A stretch of 35,562 nt of DNA from Planctomycetaceae bacterium (GTDB lineage: Bacteria; Planctomycetota; Planctomycetia; Planctomycetales; Planctomycetaceae). Positions 171-27,067 of this stretch are shown piece by piece. The number at the start of each line of letters is the position of its first letter. The stretch's first letter is position 1. Both the position numbers and the translations under genes were made by a program. Below the pieces are notes generated by a model. That model had not been told where the DNA came from. It made no database searches and saw only the letters and a list, made by a program, of their open reading frames with translations. Location: NCBI GenBank assembly GCA_023262145.1, contig JALRDR010000147.1, positions 1-35,562 on the forward strand, given 5' to 3'.

Positions 171-968
171 ACATCGCTGCTTACGGTACTGCCGATGTCG
201 GGTGCATTTGTGGTGATGCGAATGGTGCTGCCGATTGCCCCTTCGTGGGCACTGCAGAGTATTGCGCTGCTGTCGCTGATCACGGCCGTCTATGCAGCGG
301 GCATGTCATTGATTCAGACAGATCCGCGACGATTCTTCTGCTATCTGTTTCTGAGTCATGCGGCGCTGGTCCCAGCAGGTCTGGAACTGCTGAACCCCCT
401 CGGCCTGACGGGAGCTCTCTGTGTCTGGATTTCCACAAGCCTGGCCATGACCGGGCTGGGAATCACTCTTCGCGCTGTAGAGGCTCGCTTCGGGCGTCTG
501 TCGTTGCAGCAGTACCACGGTCTGGCAGCACGAGCACCGTTTCTGGCGGTGATATTTCTGGTCACCGGACTGGCGGCCGTGGGGTTCCCCGGAACCATCG
601 GCTTCATCGGATCTGAACTGCTGATTGAAGGAGCAGTCTCGGTCTACCCGCTGATGGGCACTGCGGTGGTTGTGGCTGCGGCCCTGAACGGCATCGCCAT
701 CATGTCGGCATTCTTCCGAATCTTTACAGGCCTGCGTCCTCAGGCGGGAATCGCCATGCCTGTGCGTCGTCGCGAACGTATTGCATTGCTGTTGCTGCTG
801 GTCGCAATTCTGGCAGGCGGGCTGTATCCGCAGCCCGGAGTCGTCTCTCGCTACCACGCAGCCATCGAACTGATTCGCCATCGAGATACGGACGCTGCGG
901 CGGGGCAGGATTCCCTGTCAGTTGCCAGCACCGTTCCCACCCCCATTTCGCAAGTAAACTCCCCGTGA
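3..968 (+). CDS. Proton-conducting membrane transporter subunit (NuoL/M/N, MnhD, DabB-type), C-terminal part. The CDS is partial at the window edge and its first ~56 codons are the PyrB-like fragment.
   Basis: The frame is open from the window edge to TGA at 966-968. From about nt 171 the protein is polytopic and hydrophobic, with [24 protein letters not shown]...[40 protein letters not shown]. This matches the conserved C-terminal half of the Proton_antipo_M fold (G-x-P-x-x-x-GF-x-GE). Confidence 0.7.
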
Positions 969-984
969 AAGCAGATCAAAATCT

Positions 985-10196: not shown

Positions 10197-12050
10197 TCAG
10201 AGTGATTCCAGATATGCTTTCAGCAGACCGATCTCTTCGACGGGCAGTGGTGCAGACTGATCATGATGAGATGATCGCAGCACATCTTCCAGTGTGTCGG
10301 CTCGACCATCATGAAACCATGGTCTACGCTGGCTGACACCTCGCAGGGATGGCGGGTTAAAGTGAGTCACTCCCAGTTCATCGTGCAGTCCGGTATCCCA
10401 CGAATCAGTTGAAGTCAGGTGCACGCCGGCATGACAGTCAATGCACCCGCGCTGCTGAAACAGTTTTCGCCCGGCCTCCAGCAGCTGCTGATTCACCTGA
10501 TCGCGACGGGCAGCCTGCACAGAAGGAGGCGGAACAAGGGTCCTGAGGTAGGAGCTCAGTTCCACCACCGGCAGTTCCTCAGTCTCAAGCTGGCACTGCA
10601 TGGAAATGATCAGTGACGTCGTCACCTGCTCCTCCAGTTGCCCGCGGCCACCGGTCCATGCCCATGGCCCGGTATCACCGGTTCCCAGTAACGACAGTAC
10701 CTTCTTGGGAGCCCCGAGATCTTCATCACCAAAGGTATCGGAGAGCAGACCGTTGGTGTGTCCGTCAGTGTGGCAGGAATGACAGCTGTACCAGCCATCA
10801 AGAGACAGCGATGCGTCATAGAAGGCACGTTCGCCCTGTTCCACAGGAGTCAGTTCTCGTTGCGTGCCGAGCGAGATGATCTGACGCAGAGCAGGGGACT
10901 TGCCTTCAAGATCAATTACGGAAACTGAATCATCAAACCGGCCGGCAACAAAAACCAGCCTGCGATCAGCATCAACACAGAGTGATTCCGGGCGACGCCC
11001 AACTCGCATTCGTTCGAACGGCAGATGCCCGGCGACCCGATAGGCCACCTGGTTTGTTCCGGAGACCACCAGCATTGTGATGTCATCTGCAGTGACGATC
11101 AGCTGCCCGGGATCTCCCGAACCGATCGACGGTGTTCCCAGCGGATAGAGCCCGAATGCTGCAGCATCCGCAGTGACATCGGCGGTATCTGAACGATCTG
11201 AAATGCCGGAGTAGGATCCGCCTGCGTAGGTTTCATTGATCCGGGTCGGGCTGGAAACTGCAGCGGACTGGAATGCTGCCAGCGGGACCGTATGCAGGCT
11301 GTTTCGCATCAGCACACCCCAGAAGACGCGTTCGTAAGTCGTGAACGTGTCTGAATTGAGCGTCTGCGCTGTGACCAGAACTGAACGGCCATCGGGTCCG
11401 TGGGCCAGCCCACGGATATTGTGGCCGTTGATCTGCAGAACTGCACCTGCCTTTCCGCTGACCGTATCCACAAGACACAGGCTGCCGCCAAAACTATCCG
11501 CGACCAGCAGCTGCTGATCCTGCGTAAAGAGCAGCCGACGTGGAGCAAAATCGAGTGGGACAGCGTTGCGGATCTGTGGCAGCCCGGCGCTATTCGGCTC
11601 CAGCAGCGTCACCATTCGTGACCACAGCGAACTGACCGCAATCAGAGAACCATCATCACTGATGGCAATATCGACAGGATGATCCGCTACGGTGCAGCGG
11701 TCCAGAATCCGCATTTTTCCCTCGGCCGCAGAATACTGCAGCGTGAGCAGCTGATGCCGGCTGTTGTCCAGCACCAACAGCCGGGTTCCCCAGGATTCCA
11801 GGGCGGCGAGATGTTTCCCTGCATGGAACTCCTGAACCGTCAGCAAGCGATCGGCGTCGATCACTGAGATCGACCCGCTGCCATGATTCGCGGTGAACAC
11901 AAATCCTTCGCTCTGACAGATATCCACCGGGCGGCGAACTGCCGGCCGCTGCGGGTTGAGCTCAGGGACTGATTCGTCTGCTGCCATTGCCGACAAGGTG
12001 ATGGACAGCAGGAACGCTCCTATTTGGCAGATTTCCAGCTTGATTCGCAT
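10197..12050 (-). CDS. Di-haem cytochrome c peroxidase (CCP/MauG family) fused to an N-terminal beta-propeller-like domain; secreted
   Basis: 617 aa from ATG at 12050 (MRIKLEICQIGAFLLSITLSAMAADE, a signal peptide). The two CXXCH motifs are CHSCH (nt 10770-10784) and CIDCH (nt 10431-10445). CCP-family motifs NPPSLRGV and PWFHDGRADTLEDVL are present. The first ~400 aa are repetitive strand-rich segments (GSISVIDADR, VSVIDLEG) typical of YVTN/lactonase-type propellers. Confidence 0.8.
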   Translation of the reverse strand: MRIKLEICQIGAFLLSITLSAMAADESVPELNPQRPAVRRPVDICQSEGFVFTANHGSGSISVIDADRLLTVQEFHAGKHLAALESWGTRLLVLDNSRHQLLTLQYSAAEGKMRILDRCTVADHPVDIAISDDGSLIAVSSLWSRMVTLLEPNSAGLPQIRNAVPLDFAPRRLLFTQDQQLLVADSFGGSLCLVDTVSGKAGAVLQINGHNIRGLAHGPDGRSVLVTAQTLNSDTFTTYERVFWGVLMRNSLHTVPLAAFQSAAVSSPTRINETYAGGSYSGISDRSDTADVTADAAAFGLYPLGTPSIGSGDPGQLIVTADDITMLVVSGTNQVAYRVAGHLPFERMRVGRRPESLCVDADRRLVFVAGRFDDSVSVIDLEGKSPALRQIISLGTQRELTPVEQGERAFYDASLSLDGWYSCHSCHTDGHTNGLLSDTFGDEDLGAPKKVLSLLGTGDTGPWAWTGGRGQLEEQVTTSLIISMQCQLETEELPVVELSSYLRTLVPPPSVQAARRDQVNQQLLEAGRKLFQQRGCIDCHAGVHLTSTDSWDTGLHDELGVTHFNPPSLRGVSQRRPWFHDGRADTLEDVLRSSHHDQSAPLPVEEIGLLKAYLESL

Positions 12051-12093
12051 GATGAAAGTCTCTGTGCACAGGGAACCTGGCAGAATGTCGCCC

Positions 12094-12125
12094 ACCTTTA
12101 TAATAATCTTCATAATAATCATTCG
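12094..12125. promoter_or_regulatory. AT-rich divergent promoter region with direct repeat ATAATAATC x2 and a perfect TATAAT
   Basis: This is the only strongly AT-rich patch in the window. TATAAT lies at 12099-12104 (+). ATAATAATC occurs at 12100-12108 and 12112-12120 (12-bp period). The reverse strand reads TTATTATAAA. It sits between the divergent peroxidase (start 12050, -) and yggS (+). Confidence 0.45.
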
Positions 12126-12269
12126 AGGCATGAATTCGGAACGCAGTTTTGAGGAATCGGGAAGCCGAATGCAGACAGTCAGCAGCGGGCAGCTATGATC
12201 TTCGTGGAAACCGAACCGCTGACCGACAGCAGACCGTTCCAGCAGAACATGAAGGCACAGCAGATGCAG

Positions 12270-12974
12270 ATGTCTGAAATACTGAAGCAGAATCTGACCA
12301 CTATTCTGGACGAAATTGAACAGGCACGACGAAGATCCCCTTGTGCAGCAGGATCGGTACGTCTCGTGGCCGTCACCAAATATGCGCAGCCGGAATGGGT
12401 CGCAGCTTTGAGCCTGTTGCACCCCGTCTTCGGGGAGAATCGCCCGCAGCAACTGGCTGATCGCGCCGCGGAACTACCGCAGCAGGAATGGCACCTCATT
12501 GGCCACTTGCAACGCAACAAGGTCCGTCTGGCGGTGAATTCTGCGGCTCTGATCCATTCTGTGGACTCCATTCGCCTGCTCCAGGCAATCGACACGGCTG
12601 TGACTGCCACCAGCACTGTGCCCTCAGTCCTGTTACAGGTCAACCTGTCACGAGAGACTGAAAAAACAGGCTTCTCGTCGGAGGAGATTCAGGAGCTCTG
12701 GCCGGAGATCCTGAAATCTGCCCCTCGTGTCCGACTGCAGGGCCTGATGACCATGGCGGCCGCAACAGACGATCCGGAAGAGGCTCGGCCTGTGTTTCGT
12801 GAACTTCGAGAACTCCGCGACAAGCTGAACCAGCATCCGCATTCAGCAGCGTGCAAGGTGCGTTTGTCAGAGCTTTCAATGGGCATGAGTGGCGACTTTG
12901 TACCTGCGGTGGAAGAAGGGGCAACTCTGGTGCGAGTGGGAAGCCGGCTGTTTGCCGGGCTGCAGAGCGAGTAA
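12270..12974 (+). CDS. yggS: YggS-family pyridoxal-phosphate homeostasis protein
   Basis: VRLVAVTKY (PLP Lys), HLIGHLQRNK and LSMGMSGDF..AVEEGATLVRVGSRLFG are present. The start is ambiguous among ATGs at 12195, 12249, 12264 and 12270. I chose 12270 (MSEILKQNL...) from the typical family N-terminus. Confidence 0.8.
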   Translation: MSEILKQNLTTILDEIEQARRRSPCAAGSVRLVAVTKYAQPEWVAALSLLHPVFGENRPQQLADRAAELPQQEWHLIGHLQRNKVRLAVNSAALIHSVDSIRLLQAIDTAVTATSTVPSVLLQVNLSRETEKTGFSSEEIQELWPEILKSAPRVRLQGLMTMAAATDDPEEARPVFRELRELRDKLNQHPHSAACKVRLSELSMGMSGDFVPAVEEGATLVRVGSRLFAGLQSE

Positions 12975-13148
12975 TTTCCGGCCGTTTCTGCCGATGCATC
13001 CTGATGCACCTCCAAAACACAGCAGTCACCTCGAACAGAGATGACAGAGGATCCCGAAAATGCCGATTGTAACACGGGGGATTCTCCGGCTGACGCGGCG
13101 ATGGCGCGCTGCTGTTCCAGGTCGAATCAGAAGACATTCAGGGGCCAG

Positions 13149-14216
13149 ATGACCATGTCTACTCGTCGTATGCTGCACTGTTCTGTAATTGCTGTATTAC
13201 TGACGATGGTGTCGTCCACAGGCATGGCCGGTGAGGACCAGCCGCTGTTTTCGGACAACGCACCAGCATGGCTGCAGCCCGCAGGCAACTCCGGGCTGGT
13301 CATGATGGGCTCAACGGAGGAGACGGCAGATCAGACTTCGGAGTGGGACTTTCGCCCACTTGAACTGAACCTGTCTCCCCCGAGTACAGCAGACAACTCC
13401 TGCGGCAGCGAAGGATGCCCGGCACCATTGCAGAGATTTCGCAACGGCATGCTGCAGGGGGTGACCGTGATCGGTGGTTATCTGCATGACGACGGTCCGG
13501 AAAGCATCGCCATGTCATCCATGGATCTCTCTGCAACACTCGCGTTTCCGCTGGGAAGTTTTGACAACCTGCTGATGGTAACACCGTTCTTTCGTGCCGA
13601 TTACCTTGACGCGTCCGCAGTGCTCGATCTGCCATCAGAATTGTATGAAACGGGAGCACGGTTTTTCTGGAAGAAGAAACTCAACGATCGCTTCGGGATT
13701 CTGGGTGTCGTCACCCCGGCCGTACGAACTGACTTCAACAACTCCGAGGATGCCTTAAGGATCTTCGGACTGGGTCTGCTGACATGGCAGATACGGCCGG
13801 CAACTTTGATGCTCTCCGGAGGTCTGGTCCACACGGGTCGGGACGACTTCCCCATTCTGCCCGCTGCAGGTGTGCTCTGGACACCTGACAACAACTGGAA
13901 GATCGATCTGCAGTTTCCTTCACCAAGGATTTCTCACAGGCTCAGCCGCGAGGGAGACTGTGCCGAAACCTGGGGCTACCTGTCCGGCGTCTTCGGCGGC
14001 AACACGTGGTCGGTTCAGACGGCCAGCCGCGGAGATACACAACTGACGCTGCGGGACTACCGTCTGATGGCAGGACTGGAGCACGTGCAGACGGAAAACC
14101 GCAGTCTTTTTGCCGAATTCGGCCTCGTGTTCGGACGCAGTATCGAATTCGACGAAGTTGAGCTGGATGCTGACCTGAGCAGCACCTGGACAATTCGCGG
14201 CGGGATTTGTTTCTGA
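13149..14216 (+). CDS. Secreted hypothetical protein, putative outer-membrane beta-barrel
   Basis: 355 aa with signal peptide MTMSTRRMLHCSVIAVLLTMVSSTGMA-GE. The body has alternating-hydrophobicity strands. The C-terminus ...STWTIRGGICF ends in Phe, as in OMP beta-signal motifs. I recognise no family motif. Confidence 0.55.
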   Translation: MTMSTRRMLHCSVIAVLLTMVSSTGMAGEDQPLFSDNAPAWLQPAGNSGLVMMGSTEETADQTSEWDFRPLELNLSPPSTADNSCGSEGCPAPLQRFRNGMLQGVTVIGGYLHDDGPESIAMSSMDLSATLAFPLGSFDNLLMVTPFFRADYLDASAVLDLPSELYETGARFFWKKKLNDRFGILGVVTPAVRTDFNNSEDALRIFGLGLLTWQIRPATLMLSGGLVHTGRDDFPILPAAGVLWTPDNNWKIDLQFPSPRISHRLSREGDCAETWGYLSGVFGGNTWSVQTASRGDTQLTLRDYRLMAGLEHVQTENRSLFAEFGLVFGRSIEFDEVELDADLSSTWTIRGGICF

Positions 14217-14235: not shown

Positions 14236-17200
14236 TCAGCTGTCAGTACCAGAACCGCTGACCAGATCATTGCGACCGCCGATTACTTTGGTCTTCGCCC
14301 TCGCATTCGGGCGGTTGAATCCGGAATGTGAACGCGACTCCTCTTCCATCCATGCGGGATGCAGTTCCGATTCAGCCGCAGCTGTTTCACCGCCCAGCGG
14401 CTCTCCGGTAATGACTGTCACGGCCTCCGCTTCCAGCCGGCCGGCGGTCGCCACAGTCGCAACAAGCACCACAAAGAGCCCCAGTCCAATGGGAATAATG
14501 GTGGATAACTCCAGCCGACGGCGATAGGAGATCTGGATCGTATCAAAGGCCACGGGACGCTGCCTGACTCGCCGCATCTGTCGCTCAGCACCCTGGGTCG
14601 TCAGAAACGCCTGCGACTGCCCTGCGAGTGCTGCAGCCTGCTCGTTGCCGCGCAGAATCAACTGGCCACCGTCGGCTCCCACACTGTTTTCAAGCAGCCG
14701 ATAACCCAGCCGCAGGTCTTCTTCCAGCCGCTGCATCTGTTCCTCGGCAGTGAGCGATACTGCGGTACCACTGATTGATGGAACTTCCTTGTAGGAAGAA
14801 ACCATCGACAGGGAATGTCGCATCTCACAGTCACGCACCGCTGGGAGCGAGAAACTGAACTTCATTGCGAAGGGAGAAACGTCAGCTCTGGTTCCCAGCC
14901 AACGCAACCTCAGCGCTGTTTCCGGTCCCTCAATTTTCAGAAGCAGATGACGTCGTTGCGAATCCTCCCAGCGCACATTTTCGTCCGTCGGGAGATCCAG
15001 AATGACAGTGTTCTCCGGGATTGAGACCACACACCGAATGGGCCAGCGACGGCTGAAAATACGAAAGTCAGTGATCGCTCCGGGGGAGTCATCTTCCTGT
15101 ACAAACATTGAAGTCATTGCCACCGCATACAGCTTATCTGCAGCAGACTCAGAGGGACTTTGTTCCCGCCGACGAGCCAGAACCAGTTCCGTAGGTTCTG
15201 TGAGCTGCGCCCGGGACATCGTCAGCACTTCCTGCAGCTCGCGATCCGCCGGCAATAAGCCAAGATTATCTGCTGCAGCGATCCCCCACACCTGCTCCTC
15301 CGGCGTTTCAGCTGTCAGCTGTGCCGACGCTTCTGAAACAATCAGATGATCCCAGCTTTGCCACTTCAATGAGGAGTCAAACTCCGGCCACGGACACCGG
15401 CTGGAATCCTCGGCTCCGCTGGACTCACCTTCTGCCGGCAACACCCACGCCACGAAGAACTGAGTCTGCTCGGACAAATCCGCAGCACCGCTGCCCACCG
15501 GCACGAATTGACCATCAGCCATGGCCAGCGGGATCCGTGTCTGATCTGCCAGGATGAGTGGCTCCGCCAGCAACCCGGCATCGTCCGGGAACTTCATACC
15601 AAAGCTTCCCTGCTGACCAGACCAGCGAGAAACCCTGGCCACAAAGACAATCCGATCCGGTAATGCAATCGAAATCAGCTGTCCCATGGCATCAACAGGA
15701 TTGGCTCGCCGGAGCACAAGCGGACGCTGTTCATTCAGAATCTGCAGACGCAGTTCCATACCAACCGGCAAGGAGTCTCCGGGCTCAAGCGATGGATCCG
15801 AGACGCTGTCACCCGGATCATCCAGGATGAGTCCGAGTCCGTCATTGTCTCGCAGAGACAGAGATGACTCGAGGATCTGTGAATTCGCCAGCGTAGGGCT
15901 GGAGAGTTCAATGACATCCTCATTCGGAGACAACTGGCGGTCACCAGCAACAGTAATCGCATGCAGCCCAAGCGTTCCCTCACGTAGAATGACAATCAGA
16001 TCATTGCCCTGAACATGCCAGCCGGCCAGACGGTTTGCCTCACCAGCATTCACGGTCACCGAACGCACGCGAATGCGTTCCGGGATACGAATGCTGTGGC
16101 GAAATACCGGCAGGAACGACGTTTCCACATCCAGCTGGCAACTCCAGCTCAGCAGCAGTTCAGAAAGTTCACAGGTCTGTGCAAATCGCACCTCATGGCG
16201 GCTTTCACGGGATTCCGTGCGTAATTCAAAGGCCGCATCGGCAGGTACGCGAAGCAGCGTGTCCGAGCGGCGAATCAGGTTACCCCACTCCTCAGATGCA
16301 GTACTGTACTGGGCCGGAACAGCCGCCGTGCGCTCGGGAAGCGAAGTGGAAAACACGGAATCAAAACGCGACGCAACCAGTGAACTTCCGGAAAACCGTA
16401 CCCCCCTGATCTGTTGCAGCTCGTTGATCGGTATCGTCTGGCTTGTCAGCGAGACCTCAAGCCGCGACTGCAGCTGCAATTGCAGAAAAAATGCCTCTGA
16501 AACTTCCGCAGGCATCGTAATCGTCACCTGAGCGTCTTCCGCTCGCCACAGTGCTTCGGCAGAGCTTTCTTCGTCGACCACCGTCACTCCCCTGAGGACA
16601 TAACCGGAAGGAATCTGTAATTGCAGATCACCTTCGAGGGAAGACCAGCGGGAGATACGGTAGTAACAGGTCAGTAGCTGCAGGCCCGTAGTATTCTCGC
16701 AGACGATCAGCGTATTTGCCTGCGGACGCTCAGTTTCAACCGTGACCTCACCCGCCGCTGCGTGCAGCAGACTGACGTCAATACCGGCGCTCCCGGCAAG
16801 GGTATTCAGAACAACAGGCTGCGCGAGTGATTCCCATGCGATGGTCGTGTCCGCGGTTTGTATTCTGGCAGCAGCAAACAGCTCGCGCGAACCATCCATC
16901 TGCAGCTGAAATCGAGGGCAGGGCAATGCGGGCAGACGCAGACGAAGTCCGGAGACCTGTCGCTGAATTCGCGGCCGCATGCGACACACGATTTCATGAT
17001 CAGTGAATGCTGCCACATCGTCCGCAGATGACTCCACAACCTCCGGAGTATTCGACAGTGGCTTCACTGGCAACGGCGATGACGCAGGCAGGGGAATAAG
17101 CAGCAGATCATCTCCTGCCGGATCAGGGAATACTCTGGCCCCGTCCACCTCGCATTCCACAAGCCGACAGTCCCCGGCGGGAAGTGGCAGATATGCACCC

Positions 17201-20200
17201 TGCTGCGAACTGGCCACCGTGGCAGTGATCTTCAGGATGACTTCCAGTGATTCAGCGGCATCAGGACGCAGCACCACTTCACAGCCCGTTGTCAGTGCCT
17301 GTCGAGCCAGCATCGATTCGCGGCTGGCCTGATCTCGCAGGGCATTGATTTCATCCACCGGCAGATAAATGACTCCGGCATCCGAGATAATTCCGGAGGC
17401 TGTCAGTGGAGGCCCCTGTGCCGGGCGAGAGGACTGCTGCGCGTCTGCCGTCGCACAAGGAACAACACTGAGCAGGAAGACAGTAGTCGCTGACAGAAAG
17501 CGCCGCCTCAGAGTGAAATACCGAATCTGTCGAAGTATGCCCTGCAGACCTATCAGCAACAACAGGCCAGCCCCGCTCCCCCAGAATGTGCCCTCGACTG
17601 CGACGGCAATCAGAACCGGAAGATTCAACAGAGACCCACAGGACAGCAGGAGCACAAATACTGCAAACAGCCGCTGCCGCCCAAGCACAAGACGCTGCAC
17701 GGCAAGGCAGAATCCGAGGCTGAACAGAATACTTCCGGCCAGTACTGCAGAACGACGTCGTTTCTCTGTCAGCTCCAGTTCCATCTCCTCGCGACCGGAA
17801 CTCCCCGACACCAGTGACTGCATCATCCAGCCCTGAGCCTCCGCCAGTTTCCACTCCACCAGGAATCGTCGCACTTCAACCGCATCGGCGAGACGCTGAG
17901 TACCGGTGCTGCGACTATCCACATCGCTGAAGATCGTCTGCATAGCCATGCCACTGCTGCCGTAGTGGGTGCGAAAACGCGACGTCGGAATGCGTACATC
18001 AAGGTCAGGTGAAATCAGCAGATGATGGACCGTCATCACATGCCGCGCTCCATTCAGCAACGGGGACTTCAGCTGCACTCGTCCATTGAGCGTGTCCAGA
18101 CTGCGGACTGGGTTTTCCCAGACCAGCACCAGTTGCAGGCGTTCCTGCTCTGTGGGAAGGGGAATAATCAGCTGATTCTCTTCCAGCGATGTATGCACAC
18201 GTCGCCCCGCCACCAGCACGGTTGGAATAACCCCATTCTGCACGGTAACGCTCAGCCGATCAGCAGCACCACGTCCCGAAACGTCTGCAACGGCGAGGAC
18301 TCGATGGTAAATGTCGGCGTTACGAATTCGCAGCAGGTGATACAGATGCAGGTCGACCGAACGCTCCTGCTCGGTCGCTGTCGCTGATGCAACATTGAAC
18401 TCCACGCGCCCCTGTCTCTTCGGAAGCGTCCAGCGACGCATTGCACTACTTCCGTCAACCGGCAGTTCCACGAGCGGATCAGTGCAGGCGAAAATGTCTC
18501 TGTCGTTCTGCCCGATCTCAAGTACGGCTTCGGCGAGCAGCGTCGCGTCCGGCCACGCCACCGCGGCTGTAAATCGGGAGGTTGCCGGCAGACGTGAGAC
18601 TGCAGTGACCACGATGTCCGACTCCGCTGCCCGCGGTGGAATCGGTATCTGCACGCGTACCATGTTGTCCTGCAGTTGCTCCACCTGATCCTGCGGCAGA
18701 CTGACCGGGCTGGAATCCACGGACCAGCTGATTCCTGAAAGCAGTTCCTCCGGAACAACCAGTGACAACTGTTCCCCGGCAGAAGGTGCTGGCAATTCCA
18801 GTCTTGATTCCTCGACGATGAATTCCTCGTCCATACGGAGTCGATGCCGCAGACGAATACGTCCGCGAGCGGGCGAAGACTGTTCCGGCAGCAAGGCCAT
18901 ATCATCGCCGCCGGACAACAGAATCAGCTTATCCGCCGGCAGTCTGTCCCTCGGAAACCAGCCTGCCTGCTGCTCCAGTTCCCGCTGCGTGATCGAACGA
19001 GTTGTCTGCCCCACCAGCCGAGCTGTCCCGATACCACTTCCGACTTCCGCAGAAGCCACGACAAAACTGCCCTTGCGTTCGCTGGATTGAGCCGACAGCA
19101 GCGGGATCTGCAGACGAGAGTTTCGACTATCCTGCGTATTCTGCACCAACATCTCAATCACACGGGAAGACTCCGGTTCCAGTGTTTCCGGCAGATGCAG
19201 GGTGAGCAATTGACTGGCGTCAGGCCGCTGCTCCAGCTCGTGATACAGCACTCGCTGATTTGACGCGTAGCGAGCAGAAACAATCTGCCACCCCGGGCGG
19301 ACAAGCCAGCTGACTTCGATGACGGAGGCATCGCGACAGCTGAGGTTTACAAAACAACGCACTGCCGCCGCCCGTCCTGACTGCTCCACAACAGCAACGA
19401 CAGTATCCGTGAGCTGCGCCTGCTTTCTGGAGGTCCTGACCTGTACGGTGGCATCATTCCGATAACGCAGCAGCTCAAACGATCGAGCCTGATCCGGGCC
19501 GGTAACAACATCACGTTCTACGACCCCGAACATCATCCATTCGTCCACATTGACCGTGGGCGGAAATGCGACATTGATGACGCCATGCGGGGAAAGTACT
19601 GGTCCCTGAGCGGTTTCACCCACTCGCTCCCAGCTTTGTGGGGACAGAATCGGTAACGCCCATGTTTCACTGTCCGAAACAACGGAAACTCCGGTCACTT
19701 CGAGCTGCCCGCCTGCTCCACCGCCCGGAATCCGAACCAGCACATCCTGGCTGGAATCAGCAGACTCCAGCTGCCAGTCAACCGTAGCACGGGAATTGAA
19801 TGTCACTCCGGATACTCGAGTTCCCGGAGTCACATCCAGCCGGAGTACCAATGGCTCACCGCCTGTCGCTGGCACGCCGATCGTCCAGCGGGAATTCAGA
19901 ATGTCACCGCGCAGCGTGTGACCGGCATTCAGCGACGTCAATGAGAGCGGATCCTCCGCCAGCAACTGGCGACGACGACGACAACTGAAGGTAATCCGGT
20001 CGGGAACAGAAGGCAGAATCGTCCACTTCAGTCCTTCAGCCACCGGCTCCGGGCCCACCACCAGACTTCCAGTGCCGGAAACCTCGATTGTCTCTTCCGT
20101 AATGATCTGCAGCGAAGACTGAGTTGCCTGGGGAAGTTCCAGCCGAAAGCCAACCGTATCCCCTGCCACCAGACCAGCAGCGGTCCACGTTCCTTCAAGA

Positions 20201-20658
20201 TCACCGGCAAGTCCACGTCGGAGCACATAGAGATTTCGCTCCAGATCCGCTGCCAGCGGGGCAATTCCCGACGAATCACGCATGCGGAGGTCCTGCAGAC
20301 TTGTTTTCCCAAGTGGCAGTGACTGCTGTGAACCGGTGGCCAGGTCCTCGTAGAGACTGAGTTTCATTGAGCCGGCTGTGAGTCGTGTTCCCGTGAGGAC
20401 TGCGGTGTATTCCGCCACTCGAATTCCCGGTCGACGCACCGGCTGAGGCGTTGACCTGCGTCCCTGCTGTTGCAGCTGCTGCAACTCCTCCTCACTGATT
20501 GCCTGCCACGTTCCTGACTGAATCAGATCAATCAGATCCTCAGGAGCAGTCAGTCGCGACGCATACGGCAAATCATCTGCAACTGGCGCAGATTCATCGC
20601 CGCGGGTTGCGTTACCCGCAGTCAGGACCAGCAGCAGCGTCAGAATGAGTAACCACAT
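14236..20658 (-). CDS. Giant envelope protein (2140 aa) of unknown family, made of two ectodomain modules joined by a TM cluster
   Basis: One uninterrupted ORF. ATG at 20658 (MWLLILTLLLVLTAGNA, a signal peptide) lies 1 nt after the upstream gene's stop. Hydrophobic cluster at aa 967-1071 (nt 17446-17760). One C-terminal TM (IIPIGLGLFVVLVATVATAG) is followed by an acidic tail. No known catalytic or adhesin motifs recognised. Confidence 0.8.
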   Translation of the reverse strand: MWLLILTLLLVLTAGNATRGDESAPVADDLPYASRLTAPEDLIDLIQSGTWQAISEEELQQLQQQGRRSTPQPVRRPGIRVAEYTAVLTGTRLTAGSMKLSLYEDLATGSQQSLPLGKTSLQDLRMRDSSGIAPLAADLERNLYVLRRGLAGDLEGTWTAAGLVAGDTVGFRLELPQATQSSLQIITEETIEVSGTGSLVVGPEPVAEGLKWTILPSVPDRITFSCRRRRQLLAEDPLSLTSLNAGHTLRGDILNSRWTIGVPATGGEPLVLRLDVTPGTRVSGVTFNSRATVDWQLESADSSQDVLVRIPGGGAGGQLEVTGVSVVSDSETWALPILSPQSWERVGETAQGPVLSPHGVINVAFPPTVNVDEWMMFGVVERDVVTGPDQARSFELLRYRNDATVQVRTSRKQAQLTDTVVAVVEQSGRAAAVRCFVNLSCRDASVIEVSWLVRPGWQIVSARYASNQRVLYHELEQRPDASQLLTLHLPETLEPESSRVIEMLVQNTQDSRNSRLQIPLLSAQSSERKGSFVVASAEVGSGIGTARLVGQTTRSITQRELEQQAGWFPRDRLPADKLILLSGGDDMALLPEQSSPARGRIRLRHRLRMDEEFIVEESRLELPAPSAGEQLSLVVPEELLSGISWSVDSSPVSLPQDQVEQLQDNMVRVQIPIPPRAAESDIVVTAVSRLPATSRFTAAVAWPDATLLAEAVLEIGQNDRDIFACTDPLVELPVDGSSAMRRWTLPKRQGRVEFNVASATATEQERSVDLHLYHLLRIRNADIYHRVLAVADVSGRGAADRLSVTVQNGVIPTVLVAGRRVHTSLEENQLIIPLPTEQERLQLVLVWENPVRSLDTLNGRVQLKSPLLNGARHVMTVHHLLISPDLDVRIPTSRFRTHYGSSGMAMQTIFSDVDSRSTGTQRLADAVEVRRFLVEWKLAEAQGWMMQSLVSGSSGREEMELELTEKRRRSAVLAGSILFSLGFCLAVQRLVLGRQRLFAVFVLLLSCGSLLNLPVLIAVAVEGTFWGSGAGLLLLIGLQGILRQIRYFTLRRRFLSATTVFLLSVVPCATADAQQSSRPAQGPPLTASGIISDAGVIYLPVDEINALRDQASRESMLARQALTTGCEVVLRPDAAESLEVILKITATVASSQQGAYLPLPAGDCRLVECEVDGARVFPDPAGDDLLLIPLPASSPLPVKPLSNTPEVVESSADDVAAFTDHEIVCRMRPRIQRQVSGLRLRLPALPCPRFQLQMDGSRELFAAARIQTADTTIAWESLAQPVVLNTLAGSAGIDVSLLHAAAGEVTVETERPQANTLIVCENTTGLQLLTCYYRISRWSSLEGDLQLQIPSGYVLRGVTVVDEESSAEALWRAEDAQVTITMPAEVSEAFFLQLQLQSRLEVSLTSQTIPINELQQIRGVRFSGSSLVASRFDSVFSTSLPERTAAVPAQYSTASEEWGNLIRRSDTLLRVPADAAFELRTESRESRHEVRFAQTCELSELLLSWSCQLDVETSFLPVFRHSIRIPERIRVRSVTVNAGEANRLAGWHVQGNDLIVILREGTLGLHAITVAGDRQLSPNEDVIELSSPTLANSQILESSLSLRDNDGLGLILDDPGDSVSDPSLEPGDSLPVGMELRLQILNEQRPLVLRRANPVDAMGQLISIALPDRIVFVARVSRWSGQQGSFGMKFPDDAGLLAEPLILADQTRIPLAMADGQFVPVGSGAADLSEQTQFFVAWVLPAEGESSGAEDSSRCPWPEFDSSLKWQSWDHLIVSEASAQLTAETPEEQVWGIAAADNLGLLPADRELQEVLTMSRAQLTEPTELVLARRREQSPSESAADKLYAVAMTSMFVQEDDSPGAITDFRIFSRRWPIRCVVSIPENTVILDLPTDENVRWEDSQRRHLLLKIEGPETALRLRWLGTRADVSPFAMKFSFSLPAVRDCEMRHSLSMVSSYKEVPSISGTAVSLTAEEQMQRLEEDLRLGYRLLENSVGADGGQLILRGNEQAAALAGQSQAFLTTQGAERQMRRVRQRPVAFDTIQISYRRRLELSTIIPIGLGLFVVLVATVATAGRLEAEAVTVITGEPLGGETAAAESELHPAWMEEESRSHSGFNRPNARAKTKVIGGRNDLVSGSGTDS

Positions 20659-20659
20659 T

Positions 20660-23600
20660 TCAACGTGAGACCTCGGCTGAAAGATCTGCTTGCGGGGAAA
20701 CAGCAGGGCGGCGCTCAGCGGGAAATGGCTGCTCGTACTCCGAGAAGCCAAAAATGGACGGAACTTCGCGAGCACTTTTCCATAACCGCATTCGCATTCG
20801 CCGACGGCCCAGCTGGCGGTTTCCCCAGACAGCGACCAGCCCCGGAAACAAGCCCAGCAGAACCCACGGAACCGCTGGCTCCGCCCACGCCGGCTGCAGT
20901 ACCCAGATCGCCAGGCAGGCAGCAGGGGTGAGCAATACGGGGACCAGCAGCGGAATTCGAGGCAGTATTGAGAGCACCAGGAAGACTGCGACGCAGATCG
21001 AAGAGGCCCCCAGCAGCAGTGAGACACGAGGGATCAGCAGCAATCTCGGATTGACCGCTGAACCGGGAGAAAAGAACAGATCAGGAGCAGCTCCTGAAAC
21101 AAGCCATGGTGCCACGATCAAGCCAGCCTGCTCCTGCAGTGTCGGTGGAAACGGAGCGAGCACTGCATCCAGATAACGCCGTACCCGATCCTCAGCGGGC
21201 TCCGCCCCCGGAAGCAGACTTAACAGCCCGCCGGAAACGGGATCAAAATCATGATCCGGCATCACTGCACTCAATTCGCTGCCGGTGGCGATACTCCAGA
21301 TGAGCGGCGTTGCAGGAACAGGATCGGGAAACAGCGGTCGCAGCAGAATCTCATGGCGATACAGCCTGCCAGCAGCAATCACAGTCTGTCGACAGGCGAT
21401 CTGCAGCACAGCTGGCTCTGCCTGCAGTTCGGCCGCACCCGTGAATATGCTCCACACCGTGTTGCCACTGGCAGCATCAACACTGGTACTCAGAAGGCGA
21501 GCTCCCGCCTCGACGCGAGTCAGCACCGTGCCCCCCCAGCGAATTGACTCGACATCCAGTTGCCGGGGAATTTCAACAGTAATCGACTCCGGCGTCTGCT
21601 CATAAACTGCTGTCTGTGTGGTGCGATAAAATCCCGCAGGGAACTCAGTGGAAAGCAAGAGCAGAGCCGGACCGGTTTCCCCGTCACGCACATAACCGGT
21701 CGCCCGATCGACAGGCAATAGAATTCGGCTGCGTGCCGCAATCACATCTCCGAAGGTTCGCTCACCGGCCGCCTCATACTGCCACGCTGCATCGAACATT
21801 TCGGAATAGACAGGCAGCCAGTTGTCATTTTTCGCAACTCGCAGACCGCTCCAGGACGATGTCCCCGCACGAATCTCGCCCACAGTGCAGTCAGCCGGAA
21901 GAATCAATGGTATCTGCGTCTGCAACGACCGCTCTGATTCGGCTGTCTGATTCAGCGGCCACAGCCAGTCTGCCTCAATGAGAATCTGACCACGCACGGA
22001 CTCCGGCAGTCGAAACACTCGTTTGCCCGGGGGACCTCCGATCGTCGGCCGCAACGGCTCGTTTGTGCCGGCGATTCGCACCACCGGACGAATTTCCGGA
22101 GGAACAAACAGTGCCACTTCCGTCAGGTCACGAAAGTCGATCGCATACTCAAATCTCTGATGAATACGCACGCCCGCAGCATCCGGTCGGAGTTCGACCT
22201 GCGTCTTCACCTCCACCACCGGCTGCTGCTGCTCCAGGCCAATATTGATCGCTGTTTCCGGATCGCTGGGTAACCATCCCCCGGGCGGCAGATCGCGATC
22301 AATTTCCGGCATTGCAGACCGCGTTACCGGCACGGCAACGAGTGCATTCCCGGAGGCACTTTCGGTCAGCGTAATTCGATACTCGTCAGAATCAGCCAGT
22401 CGGAACAACACAGGCTGTCCGCGCTGACGCATCACCTGTGGCGCGGAAAACTGCAGGGAACCGCCGGCAAATGCTTCAGACGAGACAAACGCCTGAAACT
22501 CAACCACAAACTCGCCGGACTGCCGCTCGGCAAACGCCAGCGTCAGCTGATTCTCCTGATCCTCCCCACGGCGAATTGTAATCGGCATTGGATTGCGATC
22601 AGCACGATACAACTGTGGACCAGGCAGCACCGTCCACCTGCTCGCTGACTCCTCACTCCATACCAGAGGCAGTTCCAGCAGCGAACCACGCACCACGTTC
22701 ACTCGATAACGAGCCTTCAGGATGACCAGCTGTTCTTCAGGACTGATCACCATTTCAGTATCCACCGCATACTGCGACTCAATCTCTTCCACGTGCAGTG
22801 TAATCAGCGACTCCGGAGAACGCAGACGAAACGCTGTGGCTGCTACCGCCGGGTCAGTATCAGCAGCCACCCTCCGCCGCTGCGCGCCGCTGACCTGTGT
22901 CTGCTGCACAAGCAATCCCGATGGAAACTGAATGTCCAGGTCTCCCGTCTGAATGTTGGCTGATCCGATCGATGGAATCCTGATACTCACATCACCCGGA
23001 AAACGCCCCTCCGCAACCTCCAGCTCAAAAGGAAGATTCAACGTCCCTTCAACTGGTGATGACAGGCGAATCAATGCTCGTGAGGAATCAGCCTCGCTGA
23101 TCACCTCATAGTTGCTCATTACGGAAATATCAGCCGCATTTCTTGCATCCACCTCTTCCAATGCAAATCCGGCAGGATAATCAACGGTGAGCTCTGTAAT
23201 CGGGGCCCCACTGATCTTCAGCGTCTGAACTCCATTCAGACTTGCCGGAATCGTTGTCAGATCCAGCCGCATTCTGTTCTGCACCTGAATTACGGCTGTG
23301 GCATTCACCGGGGGCAGCACCTCATTCCAGGCAACAGAGACAGACTCATCAAGACCCCAGAATTCCACCTTGCGAATTCCACGCTCGTCCCGCTCAACAC
23401 GATCAAATCCATCCGGCGGCAGTCGCTGAAACTCCACTGGCACAGAAAAACCAAGTTCTGCATGCGAAGCAGTCGCTCGGGGCAGGGACAATGCGAGTTG
23501 CAGGGTACCCGGGGCAGTCGTACGCACTCGGGCGGCAAGTGTCATCTTCAACGTGTGCATCCCGCGTCCCAGCAGGTGCCATGTTCGCATGTTTTGCTTT

Positions 23601-24049
23601 TCTGCCGTCAGGACGGCATCGGCCCCATCCGCTTCTGATCCATGCTCGAAGTCACGCAGAAACGTCTCACCGAGAGCAAGAGGAACCGATACCCAGTCCG
23701 CCTCACTCCGCACGCGCACCTGCATGACAACTGTCAGTTCCGCCACTTCACCTTCAATCTCACCGGTCAACTCAAGACCGGCGATGATGTAGTCCGGGAT
23801 CCGCTGCTGCTGCAGACTGCGTCGCAGCAGGTCGGCAGCGACATCGGGTTCCACCAGATCGGAGAGGGGAATGAGTTTTCCGGTCTCCGTACGAATGAGT
23901 ACATCCGCTTCATCTGCGTTCACCGCAACGGCCGCACGACTCGCGGTGCCGGCAGGACCGGCTGGTGCTGTGGGATCTCCCGCAGTCTGCGCGCGAACTG
24001 AGGCACTCAGCATCAGCAAAATGCCCAAAAGTACCGCACGCAACAACAT
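20660..24049 (-). CDS. Giant envelope protein (1129 aa) of unknown family, paralogous to the modules of the downstream gene
   Basis: ATG at 24049 (MLLRAVLLGILLMLSASVRA-QT, a signal peptide) is preceded by GGGAGGGG 8 nt upstream. A ~980-aa ectodomain is followed by a three-segment hydrophobic anchor (aa 1003-1076, nt 20822-21043), then an RRRMRMR cluster and a 39-aa tail. Confidence 0.8.
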   Translation of the reverse strand: MLLRAVLLGILLMLSASVRAQTAGDPTAPAGPAGTASRAAVAVNADEADVLIRTETGKLIPLSDLVEPDVAADLLRRSLQQQRIPDYIIAGLELTGEIEGEVAELTVVMQVRVRSEADWVSVPLALGETFLRDFEHGSEADGADAVLTAEKQNMRTWHLLGRGMHTLKMTLAARVRTTAPGTLQLALSLPRATASHAELGFSVPVEFQRLPPDGFDRVERDERGIRKVEFWGLDESVSVAWNEVLPPVNATAVIQVQNRMRLDLTTIPASLNGVQTLKISGAPITELTVDYPAGFALEEVDARNAADISVMSNYEVISEADSSRALIRLSSPVEGTLNLPFELEVAEGRFPGDVSIRIPSIGSANIQTGDLDIQFPSGLLVQQTQVSGAQRRRVAADTDPAVAATAFRLRSPESLITLHVEEIESQYAVDTEMVISPEEQLVILKARYRVNVVRGSLLELPLVWSEESASRWTVLPGPQLYRADRNPMPITIRRGEDQENQLTLAFAERQSGEFVVEFQAFVSSEAFAGGSLQFSAPQVMRQRGQPVLFRLADSDEYRITLTESASGNALVAVPVTRSAMPEIDRDLPPGGWLPSDPETAINIGLEQQQPVVEVKTQVELRPDAAGVRIHQRFEYAIDFRDLTEVALFVPPEIRPVVRIAGTNEPLRPTIGGPPGKRVFRLPESVRGQILIEADWLWPLNQTAESERSLQTQIPLILPADCTVGEIRAGTSSWSGLRVAKNDNWLPVYSEMFDAAWQYEAAGERTFGDVIAARSRILLPVDRATGYVRDGETGPALLLLSTEFPAGFYRTTQTAVYEQTPESITVEIPRQLDVESIRWGGTVLTRVEAGARLLSTSVDAASGNTVWSIFTGAAELQAEPAVLQIACRQTVIAAGRLYRHEILLRPLFPDPVPATPLIWSIATGSELSAVMPDHDFDPVSGGLLSLLPGAEPAEDRVRRYLDAVLAPFPPTLQEQAGLIVAPWLVSGAAPDLFFSPGSAVNPRLLLIPRVSLLLGASSICVAVFLVLSILPRIPLLVPVLLTPAACLAIWVLQPAWAEPAVPWVLLGLFPGLVAVWGNRQLGRRRMRMRLWKSAREVPSIFGFSEYEQPFPAERRPAVSPQADLSAEVSR

Positions 24050-24209: not shown

Positions 24210-24989
24210 TCAAGGGAGGACTTTCACGATCTTTCGCCCGAGTTCCGGGCTGGCGGCAGCCAGCAGACTGGGTACGAAAATATCGATTGCATCACCTTTC
24301 AGGTTTGAAACGAAGCCGCCTCCCTCCTCGACCATCAGCACTCCAGCCGCAATATCCCATGCATTCAGACTTGTCGACCAGAACGCGTCAGTGCGACCGC
24401 AGGCGACAGCAGCAAGATTCAGAGCCGCTGACCCGGTGCGTTGTACCGTGCGAAAAACTCCCAGTGCCGTGGTGAACCGCTTCACTGCAGGATCGTCGGG
24501 CGTCGTCCCCGGTGGCAGGCTCGCCATTCCAAACGCAGCGTCAATCTGAGTCTCACCACTACAAGTCACCGGGTTGCCGTCCAGTTGTACCCCACACCCT
24601 CTGACAGCCGTGAACGTCTCGTCCCGCGTTGGATCATGAATCACGCCGACCTCGACCCGTCCCCGCACCTGCAGCGCGATGGAAACCGCATAGTAGGGGA
24701 AACCATGTACATAGTTGGACGTGCCGTCGAGCGGATCGATGATCCAGAACAGCTGGTCATCAGCAGCTCGACTATCAAGGTTCTCTTCAGCCAGCACACT
24801 GATCTGCGGAAATCGCTCAGCCAGCAATTCGACGATTGCCCGCTGCGAGGCCTCGTCTGCTTCAGTTACAAGGTTGGCCCGACTTTTCTCCCGGACGGAA
24901 AAGCGTCCGCGCCAGTCCTGCAGAATTCGCCCGCCCACCTGCGCCGCGGCGACAGCAGCCTGCAACCATTCTTCCTGTTCTGAATTCAT
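24210..24989 (-). CDS. suhB: Inositol monophosphatase family protein (SuhB/IMPase-like)
   Basis: VTEADEASQ, WIIDPLDGTSNYVHGFPYYAVSIAL, GSAALNLAAVACGRTDAF and AWDIAAG are present. ATG at 24989 (MNSEQEEWLQAAV...) gives 259 aa. The longer ORF-track start at 25163 adds a non-conserved, Arg-rich extension. Confidence 0.85.
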   Translation of the reverse strand: MNSEQEEWLQAAVAAAQVGGRILQDWRGRFSVREKSRANLVTEADEASQRAIVELLAERFPQISVLAEENLDSRAADDQLFWIIDPLDGTSNYVHGFPYYAVSIALQVRGRVEVGVIHDPTRDETFTAVRGCGVQLDGNPVTCSGETQIDAAFGMASLPPGTTPDDPAVKRFTTALGVFRTVQRTGSAALNLAAVACGRTDAFWSTSLNAWDIAAGVLMVEEGGGFVSNLKGDAIDIFVPSLLAAASPELGRKIVKVLP

Positions 24990-25451
24990 CCTGCGTTGCT
25001 TTCTTCGTGTGCGGCGAGCGAGTGCATTGGCGGCAGAGCTTAACGGTTCGAGCAGAACGGGGCGTCCGGGCTGCTGAACATGGTGCCGAAGGAATACCCG
25101 CCAGGACAGCTCGGGCATCAGCCGGCGGAGCTTTACTGTCAACGACCACATACAGTTCAACAAGGGGATTCCTGTCCAGCCGTCATAATCCCTATTTTCG
25201 GAGAGATCTCACCAATTTCCCCCCGAGGCGAGCATTTCCTGACCTGTCCGTGGGAATCATGCCGGCTGAGCAACTCTGACTGCCATAATTGTTGATGCGA
25301 CCGGCAATGCCTCCATTTCTGCAATGTCAGACCAGCTGATATCGGCCTTTCTCTGCAGTTGTCATGGCGCAGCTGCCGATTTCGCCGAAGTCTGTCGGTC
25401 TCGCCGAACAGGTAACCCCTTTGTTCCGTTTCTACGGCTCGACACAGAAAC

Positions 25452-25907
25452 ATGAATCTTCCTGGCAATAACAGCAGGCAAAAAAAGCAACTGCGGCTCG
25501 GGGCAATCCTGACCATGGAGCTGGTGCTCGTTCTGCCTGTCTTCCTGATCATCATTTGTGGACTGATCGAATTCATCATGATTTCGGCAGCACAGTCCCG
25601 GATGGATCAGGCAGCTCATGCCGGGCTTCGCATGATGAGCGTTTCCGGCATCGACAAGGAAACGTGTCAACAGCAGGTGGAACGTCTGCTCGGCCCGCGT
25701 CTGGCACTGAATTATCAGCTTGAAATGAACCCTGCGGAATATCCCGGGGAAATTGGTGAGTTAGCTTTGCGAATTCCAATGCAGAATGCCTGCCCGGACA
25801 TGCTCTGGATGTTCGGCTTTGGACTTCAGGGAAGGCAGCTTCATTCATCTGCAGCGATGGTAATGGAGCGTGTTACCGAACACGCTGACACTGCACAAAT
25901 GCAGTAG
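25452..25907 (+). CDS. TadE-like pilus assembly (pseudopilin-like) protein
   Basis: 151 aa. The N-terminal LRLGAILTMELVLVLPVFLIIICGLIEF matches the TadE-like domain pattern (G-x-x-x-V/M-E-x-x-L-V-L-P-V-x-L). Confidence 0.7.
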   Translation: MNLPGNNSRQKKQLRLGAILTMELVLVLPVFLIIICGLIEFIMISAAQSRMDQAAHAGLRMMSVSGIDKETCQQQVERLLGPRLALNYQLEMNPAEYPGEIGELALRIPMQNACPDMLWMFGFGLQGRQLHSSAAMVMERVTEHADTAQMQ

Positions 25908-26014
25908 TAATCACAATGGTTGTCAGACGCACGCGTTCTGTGTTTGTCCGGATTCGGTGCCGCGATGACTTCATCAGGGTTTTGTTCCTGACCAAGAATT
26001 GACTGGAGTTTTCT

Positions 26015-26995
26015 GTGAAACTTACACCCTGGATGTTATCGGTAGCGACGTTTGGCATGATCGCACTGCTGGTCGTCGGGTACTTTGTGAAGCTTGCCTT
26101 CAGTGGCCCCGAAGTTCAGGAGGTGGCCCGCCGCACGACTCGAACCCTGCCCATGGCTCTGGCTGAGATTCCGCCAGGAACGCTGGTGACACGTGCTCAC
26201 GTGGGCAACGGTCCCTGGAAACTGGACAGTGGCGAACTGGCCCCGGATACGCTGACCCGAGTCGATTCGCTGATCGGGCGGATCACGAAAGTGAAGATTG
26301 AGCCGGCAACTCCGATAGAGAGCTCGATGTTTTATCCACCTGGTGACTTTCCGGATCTGCAGGTAGACGAAGGCAAACGAGCAGTTGTGGTGGGCATCAG
26401 CCAGACGACAGCCCCGATTACGGCAATCCTCAAGGACGGGCAGTACGTTGACGTCCAGCTGACTGTCGATTCCGTAAATGTCACATCCGCAGGCGCTCGC
26501 CGAAACGCCAGCCCGAACAGTGTGCCACAGCATCTTGGCGATGCGATGACGGCAACTTTGTTTCGGGGAGTCAAAGTCCTGGGCATCGCCGGAGGTGGGC
26601 AGGCTGTAACTCTGGAACTGGACGAAGAGCAGGCGCGGGTGGCACTGCTGGCTCAGAAGAAGGGCGAAATCGACCTCGTTTACAGCAGCAGCCAGAACCC
26701 GCAGCCCGGCGGAATTCGAATTGCTACCAGCGAACAGGATCGCATCTACTTCGAAGAGATTCTGGGACTGCGGCCGGGCGCTCCGCGACAGGACAACGTC
26801 TTCAAGACAGAGCAGTACCGCGGCACGAATTATTCAGACAGCTACTTCGAAGATGGAAAGCGAATTGGCAACGACATGGGTCAGGGAACCCCACAGACAG
26901 CCCCGCTGGATCAGCGGCGCCAGAACGTCGACAACTCATCACCTGCCACCGGCGATCTCGCGGAAGTATTTGACGACACGGCGACTCGCCGCTGA
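26015..26995 (+). CDS. cpaB: Flp pilus assembly protein CpaB/RcpC-like, with a long low-complexity C-terminal tail
   Basis: GTG start with GGAG 8 nt upstream. It has an N-terminal TM (WMLSVATFGMIALLVVGYFV), a SAF-like segment (LPMALAEIPPGTLVTRAHV ... LIGRITKVKIEPATPIESSMF) and an RcpC-like segment (VDEGKRAVVVGISQTTAPITAILKDGQYVDVQLT). Confidence 0.7.
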   Translation: MKLTPWMLSVATFGMIALLVVGYFVKLAFSGPEVQEVARRTTRTLPMALAEIPPGTLVTRAHVGNGPWKLDSGELAPDTLTRVDSLIGRITKVKIEPATPIESSMFYPPGDFPDLQVDEGKRAVVVGISQTTAPITAILKDGQYVDVQLTVDSVNVTSAGARRNASPNSVPQHLGDAMTATLFRGVKVLGIAGGGQAVTLELDEEQARVALLAQKKGEIDLVYSSSQNPQPGGIRIATSEQDRIYFEEILGLRPGAPRQDNVFKTEQYRGTNYSDSYFEDGKRIGNDMGQGTPQTAPLDQRRQNVDNSSPATGDLAEVFDDTATRR

Positions 26996-27067
26996 TGGCC
27001 GGAATTCAGTGGTTCGAAACACTCGAAGAATTCTGCTCAGGCCGCCGAACTCTGTTGGACAGAGAAC

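Follow-up and report, generated by a model that had tools for sequence, protein, structure and literature searches.

Bacterial proteins of the BatD type combine a signal peptide with beta-rich domains in the periplasm and a transmembrane (TM) helix at the C-terminus. GldM/PorM of the type IX secretion system (T9SS) forms an inner-membrane-anchored oligomer of immunoglobulin-like beta-sandwich domains that spans the periplasm. The planctomycete envelope is unusual: its periplasm is enlarged, it bears crateriform pits, and the cells divide without FtsZ. Its protein components are largely unknown. In this study, two adjacent genes, A and B, were analyzed in a 35,562-nucleotide stretch of a Planctomycetaceae bacterium (contig JALRDR010000147.1, assembly GCA_023262145.1), hereafter the window. 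They encode three paralogous modules: module A in gene A, and modules B1 and B2 fused in gene B. The modules were like BatD-type proteins in the three features named above, and GldM/PorM served as the working analogy. The reading favoured here, held with about even confidence, is that A, B1, and B2 are the three homologous arms of an inner-membrane-anchored periplasmic complex with a fixed 1:1:1 composition and a scaffold role.

Gene A (1129 amino acids) and gene B (2140 amino acids) were intact open reading frames (ORFs) on the minus strand, with starts picked by agreement with homologues. Re-reading of the ORFs returned the same coordinates and lengths as an earlier annotation of the window made from its letters (the original prediction). 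The features of the pair are given below; a slash marks a predicted signal peptidase cleavage position.

20660–24049, minus strand: gene A (module A), with signal peptide, all-beta ectodomain, three-TM anchor, and basic, predicted cytoplasmic tail (ORF, homologues, AlphaFold)
23990–24049, minus strand: putative signal peptide of A, residues 1–20, MLLRAVLLGILLMLSASVRA/Q (hydrophobic N-terminus; Q21 nearly invariant)
21035–23989, minus strand: ectodomain of A, residues 21–1005 (DSSP on the AlphaFold model; internal repeat)
20822–21034, minus strand: predicted anchor of A, three TM helices, residues ~1006–1076 (hydropathy; AlphaFold; homology to the B1 anchor)
20663–20821, minus strand: predicted cytoplasmic tail of A, RRRMRMR and then a P-[ST]-x-F motif (EVPSIFGF) (sequence, alignment)
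20656–20662, minus strand: A stop/B start junction, TGAaATG (read directly from the sequence)
14236–20658, minus strand: gene B, fusion of modules B1 and B2, 2140 residues (ORF; 41 clusters)
17764–20658, minus strand: putative B1 signal peptide (residues 1–~20) and ectodomain (to residue 965) (AlphaFold; hhalign to A)
17533–17763, minus strand: predicted three-TM anchor of B1, residues 966–1042, with an invariant G-x-F-W-G in the third helix (hydropathy, alignment, AlphaFold)
17500–17532, minus strand: predicted cytoplasmic basic loop RQIRYFTLRRR, residues 1043–1053 (sequence, family alignment)
17440–17499, minus strand: internal signal-peptide-like segment FLSATTVFLLSVVPCATADA/QQ, residues 1054–1073 (conserved in 41 of 41 B relatives)
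14512–17439, minus strand: B2 ectodomain, residues 1074–2049 (hhalign to A)
14239–14511, minus strand: predicted single TM helix of B2, residues ~2050–2075, with YRRR before it and a 65-residue predicted cytoplasmic tail after it (hydropathy)

Gene A ended in EVSR followed by TGA, and one base further on gene B opened with ATG-TGG-TTA. This 1-nt spacing makes the proposed translational coupling plausible in this clade; among relatives the A–B gap ranged from a 4-nt overlap to ~260 nt, so coupling was not a feature of the family. Both proteins were rich in Leu, Val, Arg, Glu, and Ala, with Lys at just 0.9% and Cys at 0.35% in A and 0.89% in B, which bore out the Cys-poor composition rich in Leu, Val, Arg, and Glu described before. 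A motif scan of A and B found no CxEQ thioester, no LPXTG sorting motif, and neither HExxH nor CxxCH, the last two in agreement with the predicted absence of protease and haem motifs.

In A, the hydropathy profile showed a signal peptide at the N-terminus and, within residues 1002–1076, three hydrophobic stretches with RRRMRMR after them. The signal peptide ended in VRA/Q, where cleavage would be expected, and Q21 right after it was nearly invariant in the family alignment. The ectodomain started with a strand-strand-helix cap and a first beta domain, continued with at least three tandem ~175-residue beta units with 20-residue strands, and ended with C-terminal beta domains and a juxtamembrane helical hairpin. 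The repeat was detected within A at a shift of ~175 residues (ectodomain 225–643 against 398–820, E = 5e-12), and the same period was weakly detectable in B1 and B2. The anchor helices were placed by AlphaFold at residues 1008–1028, 1035–1051, and 1053–1091. Conserved G/W/P/Q residues in the TM helices suggest specific intramembrane packing. In the tail motif, F1100 was invariant in the close family, and a related PSDF/PSDY motif occurred in distant clades; such a P-[ST]-x-aromatic motif suggests a cytoplasmic partner.

The hydropathy of B showed a short N-terminal leader, three segments at residues 969–1042 followed by RQIRYFTLRRR, and a single TM segment at ~2050–2075. All 41 B clusters were 2001–2258 residues long, and all kept the central three-TM block, the basic loop, and the short hydrophobic segment after it. 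This internal segment, FLSATTVFLLSVVPCATADA, had a short h-region, a Pro in the c-region, and A-x-A followed by Gln, while RQIRYFTLRRR doubled as the B1 tail and as the n-region. A small residue almost always preceded the Gln in the 41 clusters (ADA/QQ, SA/QE, A/WQ, S[ACS]/GQQ, etc.). In the AlphaFold model of B residues 1–1200 the segment was not a helix and had a pLDDT below 50. Since its n-h-c layout was that of a cleavable signal and not that of a TM helix, signal peptidase I probably cuts B at A-D-A/Q, before Q1074. In distant relatives the B1 signal peptide ended in LHA/Q or VYA/Q. Such small-residue/Gln ends in A, B1 (distant relatives), and B2 indicate that each module has its own signal peptide of one type. 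Gene B is thus an ancient fusion of two complete precursor genes with the internal signal peptide retained. In both A and B1, a basic cluster followed the third TM helix, on the side predicted to be cytoplasmic. An Arg cluster had also been placed after the B2 anchor, but B2 has a single C-terminal TM helix and its YRRR precedes it. The predicted topology was self-consistent, with three signal-peptide-led ectodomains outside.

The homology of the three modules became significant only with deep profiles. Pairwise BLASTP between modules gave no significant match, and with profiles as shallow as 21 and 40 sequences hhalign reached no better than marginal E-values of 0.002–0.03. Deep profiles were built from 150 diverse representatives of an exhaustive hidden Markov model (HMM) search for A and from the B genes of ~40 loci, and were compared by hhalign after signal peptides and anchors had been trimmed. 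A matched B1 with E = 2.2e-15 (probability 98.5%) over 773 collinear columns (31–917 against 23–877), and A matched B2 with E = 3.5e-12 (probability 97.6%) over 792 collinear columns (33–910 against 17–890). B1 matched B2 with E = 7.6e-9 (probability 95.8%) out of register by one repeat unit; a second, collinear alignment of this pair had E = 7.5e-5 (probability 62.2%). Controls with column-reversed profiles were negative (E = 0.016–0.5). In HMMER searches of distant relatives, the A profile matched the B-like protein of the divergent locus L056 (E = 1.3e-12), the B1 profile matched the A-like protein of the same locus (E = 2.4e-8), and the B1 profile also matched the B2 halves in L053 and in L055. 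A and B1 were homologous in their juxtamembrane region and three-TM anchor (E = 1.8e-6), in line with the parallel anchors described in the original prediction; the single-TM end of B2 had no detectable similarity to the anchors of A or B1. The ectodomain elements that it had listed as shared were conserved positions in all three families: the PL-containing strand and a [F/L]-R-L-x-L-P-x-A/L-x-x-S/P strand ~60 residues further on. The profile–profile E-values, the HMMER cross-matches, and the parallel secondary structure of the AlphaFold models support the proposed triplication of one ancestral module.

The structures of A and of B residues 1–1200 were predicted by AlphaFold2 with family alignments, and the pLDDT was 75 and 74, respectively. 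By DSSP, the ectodomains of A and B1 were ~52–53% strand and 10% helix. Both models had the same order of elements, from a strand-strand-helix cap and a long hairpin through many beta-sandwich strands (some longer than 20 residues) to two helices, a hairpin, and three TM helices. B2 repeated, in its first 115 residues, the cap and long hairpin of the A and B1 N-termini. Foldseek against the PDB returned the same list for both models, with ribophorin I/Ost1, integrin alpha legs, M1-aminopeptidase N-domains, ITIH1, and antigen I/II C-domains among the matches; each of these had a TM-score of at most 0.30 and a large root-mean-square deviation (rmsd). As modelled, the modules belong to a broad class of membrane-anchored beta-sandwich arrays and not to a family.

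The distribution of the pair was wide. Word-indexed searching found 21 clusters of A homologues, whereas the exhaustive HMM search found 889; a third word-indexed search, based on a profile, gained little, and a metagenome locus scan with a four-sequence alignment gave 11 loci. The A family comprised at least 889 clusters at 50% identity (E ≤ 1e-3), 498 of them at E ≤ 1e-10, and nearly all of the best 150 were ~1100 residues long. The named members were all "hypothetical protein" entries from planctomycete metagenome-assembled genomes (MAGs), with one exception in a MAG labelled deltaproteobacterial; cluster look-ups returned MAGs only and no cultured organism. The closest relative, at 86% identity, was from a Planctomycetaceae MAG. 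Among ~60 loci examined, A was followed by the fused B on the same strand in every locus long enough to show it, so the pair is syntenic in relatives. The family had been called lineage-specific, which understates a spread over deeply divergent planctomycete lineages; planctomycete-wide is the better term.

Neither Pfam nor NCBIfam had a match to A or B, even with the threshold at E ≤ 1, and Pfam scans of 42 diverse A relatives and 17 B relatives, taken singly, gave only scattered single chance matches. PDB chain sequences searched with profiles of three alignments gave no match. Literature on DUF6268, on ribophorin in Planctomycetes, and on crateriform structures gave nothing that identified A or B. 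The family was thus absent from Pfam, NCBIfam, the PDB, and the searchable literature, in agreement with the earlier statement that no family was recognisable, and was rated as lying outside the known kinds of system, although its fold class is common.

Specific candidates were also compared, and the BatD, DUF4139, alpha-2-macroglobulin, VWA, sortase-substrate, and Tad-component readings were rejected. BatD (PF13584) had no match at E ≤ 1 in A or B, nor at E ≤ 0.1 in the 42 A and 17 B relatives, and no AAA/MoxR, DUF58, or VWA (BatA/BatB) genes of a Bat aerotolerance operon were nearby, the neighbours being inositol monophosphatase (IMPase), DUF6268, Tad, and BacA genes. DUF4139/DUF4140 (MuiA-like, TIGR02231) had no Pfam or NCBIfam match in A, B, or relatives. 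For alpha-2-macroglobulin/complement-like proteins there was no Pfam match and no CxEQ, and complement C5 appeared in Foldseek only at a probability of 0.23. The ribophorin I profile (PF04597) had no match at E ≤ 1 in A or B, nor any among the relatives, and the PDB sequence-profile search was empty. For integrin alpha there was no FG-GAP Pfam match and no propeller in the models. VWA/MIDAS was rejected by the lack of a VWA match, one chance DESVS in A having no VWA context. No LPXTG or PEP motif of a sortase or exosortase substrate was found near any anchor, and A and B1 have three conserved TM helices. A Tad/Flp pilus component was rejected because Tad genes adjoined the pair in one clade only and none lay around distant members.

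In the favoured reading, the paralogous modules A, B1, and B2 would be type-I membrane proteins, each made with a Sec signal peptide. Each would export a ~950-residue beta-sandwich ectodomain to the periplasm and stay anchored in the cytoplasmic membrane. After the three TM helices and Arg-rich cytoplasmic loop of B1, the retained signal peptide of the second precursor would restart export, and signal peptidase I would cut at A-D-A/Q, so that A, B1, and B2 would end up as separate polypeptides at a constant 1:1:1 ratio. This stoichiometry would be fixed by tight co-expression of the two genes together with the B1–B2 fusion; at many loci A and B lie close together or overlap, which is consistent with balanced co-expression. 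We conjecture that the three then assemble into one complex: the conserved TM bundle and the side-by-side ectodomains could form a hetero-trimeric rod or scaffold that would start at the inner membrane and reach out into the enlarged periplasm of planctomycetes, and the conserved tail motif could be a docking site inside the cell. The original prediction had likewise hypothesised a scaffold or surface structure spanning the periplasm or the envelope.

Several points weigh against this reading. Basic residues also precede the first TM helix, on the predicted periplasmic side, in a patch comparable in all three modules, which weakens a simple positive-inside argument. The pTM of both models was low (0.34–0.38), so the models do not fix whether the overall shape is a rod or compact. 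The pair has no established partner in the outer membrane. A purely structural role also fails to account for the conserved neighbours IMPase and BacA, which are enzymes. The tandem ~175-residue repeats in each module inflate module-to-module similarity; the homology of the cap and of the anchor nevertheless argues for whole-module duplication. A bolder extension, which we regard as rather doubtful, is that the pair encodes an undescribed envelope complex common to the whole phylum Planctomycetota: a hetero-trimer of three ancient paralogous arms, produced from two genes by internal signal-peptide cleavage and forming an unassigned envelope structure. Examples, though neither is a likely one, would be a tether that crosses the enlarged periplasm between inner and outer membrane, or that part of the crateriform structures which lies in the periplasm. 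Such a complex might be tied functionally to the IMPase-family phosphatase.

In at least 17 loci (L001, L005, L048, L052, L054, etc., distant ones included), the undecaprenyl-diphosphatase gene bacA lay downstream of B in convergent orientation, sometimes overlapping the 3' end of B; it was absent from that place in the window. It bears on an alternative that we consider unlikely, in which the modules serve, much like ribophorin I, as accessory subunits of a periplasmic machine acting on undecaprenyl-phosphate-linked glycans, in protein glycosylation or in cell-wall/polysaccharide assembly. They would hold substrates or partner enzymes at the membrane, improbable as this is, as Ost1/ribophorin I does in the eukaryotic oligosaccharyltransferase (OST). 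The recurrence of BacA favours this, and ribophorin I/Ost1 headed the Foldseek lists of both models (E = 9e-10, with a probability of 1.0, and E = 9e-8; ~420 columns aligned) and is itself a beta-sandwich protein with a signal peptide and a C-terminal TM helix. However, whole-chain superposition gave TM-scores of 0.22–0.30 with an rmsd of ~20 Å, and integrin legs and M1-aminopeptidase N-domains scored nearly as well, which suggests that the match is a generic beta-sandwich one. There was no Ribophorin_I Pfam match even at E = 0.1. No STT3/PglB-type or other glycosyltransferase was conserved beside the pair in the window and the flanks of ~60 loci, and BacA is on the opposite strand and absent from the window.

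A gene for an IMPase-family protein (SuhB-like; Pfam Inositol_P 4e-62, NCBIfam) lay at 24210–24989 on the minus strand, with 259 residues from ATG. From a TTG start the ORF would be 24210–25163 on the minus strand (317 residues); since homologues have 258–267 residues, translation probably begins at the ATG at 24989 (MNSEQEEW...). The gene was upstream of A in the window, in all near-clade loci, and in most distant loci, and was absent in L053, L055, and part of a marine clade. The divergent version of the pair in L056 (986–9069) had an A-like protein of 979 residues with one TM helix, a 200-residue metallophosphoesterase gene, and a two-module B-like protein of 1506 residues, so that a phosphatase of a different family occupied the place where relatives have the IMPase nearby. 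These phosphatases would suit a quite unlikely explanation in which the three modules are independent paralogues, for instance binding or sensor proteins of the periplasm whose cytoplasmic tails would pass a signal on, possibly to the IMPase-family enzyme; the conserved short motif in the A tail would also fit. Against it, the pair co-occurred strictly, in a fixed order and with a stable B1–B2 fusion over very deep divergence, for which obligate co-assembly is the easier explanation. Neither Pfam nor NCBIfam recognised a signalling domain, and several lineages that keep the pair lack the IMPase gene.

Giant size, beta-rich structure, repeats, and a signal peptide are together typical of adhesins, and streptococcal antigen I/II C-domains and integrin legs were among the Foldseek matches. 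Export past the periplasm, as cell-surface or outer-envelope adhesins or surface-layer components, is nevertheless very unlikely for A and B. Their predicted multi-helix C-terminal anchors carry the conserved G/W/P/Q residues and are followed by the Arg clusters of the cytoplasmic side. LPXTG and PEP-CTERM motifs were absent near the C-termini, and Pfam/NCBIfam scans of A and B found no autotransporter, type I, type V, or type IX secretion signature. Length and architecture were strongly conserved, unlike those of fast-varying adhesins.

Tad/Flp-like genes lay divergently upstream of the pair. In the window they formed a truncated cluster at 25452–28285 on the plus strand (TadE-like, 25452–25907; CpaB/RcpC, 26015–26995; a family-less 405-residue protein, 27068–28285), followed by a thioredoxin-like gene at 28424–29866 where the Tad clusters of L001 and L005 also carry prepilin peptidase A24, CpaF, and TadB/C. 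It is most improbable that A and B are the periplasmic part of such a pilus machine: TadE, CpaB/RcpC, and the conserved 405-residue protein do recur in ~30 related loci, and prepilin peptidase, CpaF, and TadB/C occur there in relatives, but this adjacency is confined to one clade, L003, L004, L048–L056, and L059–L064 keep the pair without Tad genes, the window's own cluster is truncated, and we know of no Tad system that contains proteins like A or B.

Other neighbours were also recorded. A DUF6268 gene with a signal peptide (13041–14216, plus strand) was convergent to B and ended 19 nt from its stop. DUF6268 adjoined the pair in ~20 related loci of certain clades, either downstream and convergent or upstream and divergent of the IMPase gene, which hints at a link to the pair, possibly as an outer-membrane partner. 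In a marine clade (L059–L064), two HtrA-like genes (Trypsin_2 and PDZ) lay convergently downstream, and a gene for a phytoene-desaturase-like flavin adenine dinucleotide oxidase lay upstream. The Tad genes and HtrA-like proteases were clade-specific neighbours. Elsewhere in the window, 45–2973 (plus strand) held a Proton_antipo_M fragment (45–968) and a SulP transporter with a C-terminal P-II-like domain (985–2973), an unusual combination. In a 751-residue protein at 10197–12452 (minus strand), a di-haem cytochrome c peroxidase (CCP_MauG) domain was joined to NHL/beta-propeller repeats. Rfam families and tRNAs had no match in the window.

The pair provides a defined envelope candidate: ~3,270 residues, strongly conserved, family-less, predicted to be membrane-anchored and periplasmic, and maintained as a fixed unit of two genes in deeply divergent planctomycetes. 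Its anatomy is unusual for bacteria, with one module triplicated, two copies fused, and an internal signal peptide retained, and it predicts cleavage at Q1074 and a 1:1:1 complex. For now, the pair is a well-characterised unknown and not a mechanism.

Compared with known systems, GldM/PorM differs from A and B in its N-terminal TM helix, its ~500-residue length, and its homodimeric state; it had no sequence or Foldseek match to A or B, and no T9SS genes were nearby. Integrin alpha legs (thigh, calf-1, calf-2; Foldseek E = 1e-7) are like the modules as read here: beta-sandwich domains in a rod lead to a TM helix and then to a short cytoplasmic tail that carries a conserved motif. Unlike integrin alpha, the modules have no beta-propeller head or FG-GAP, the TM-scores were 0.12–0.16, and the phylogenetic context is unrelated, so only the fold class is shared. 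Ribophorin I/Ost1 has one TM helix, whereas two of the modules have three; the modules are also about twice as long, with tandem 175-residue repeats, and occur as three paralogous copies, two of them fused, with no sequence-family match and no OST catalytic partner nearby. Like ribophorin I/Ost1, however, each module is predicted to combine a signal peptide, tandem non-cytoplasmic beta-sandwich domains, and a C-terminal membrane anchor.

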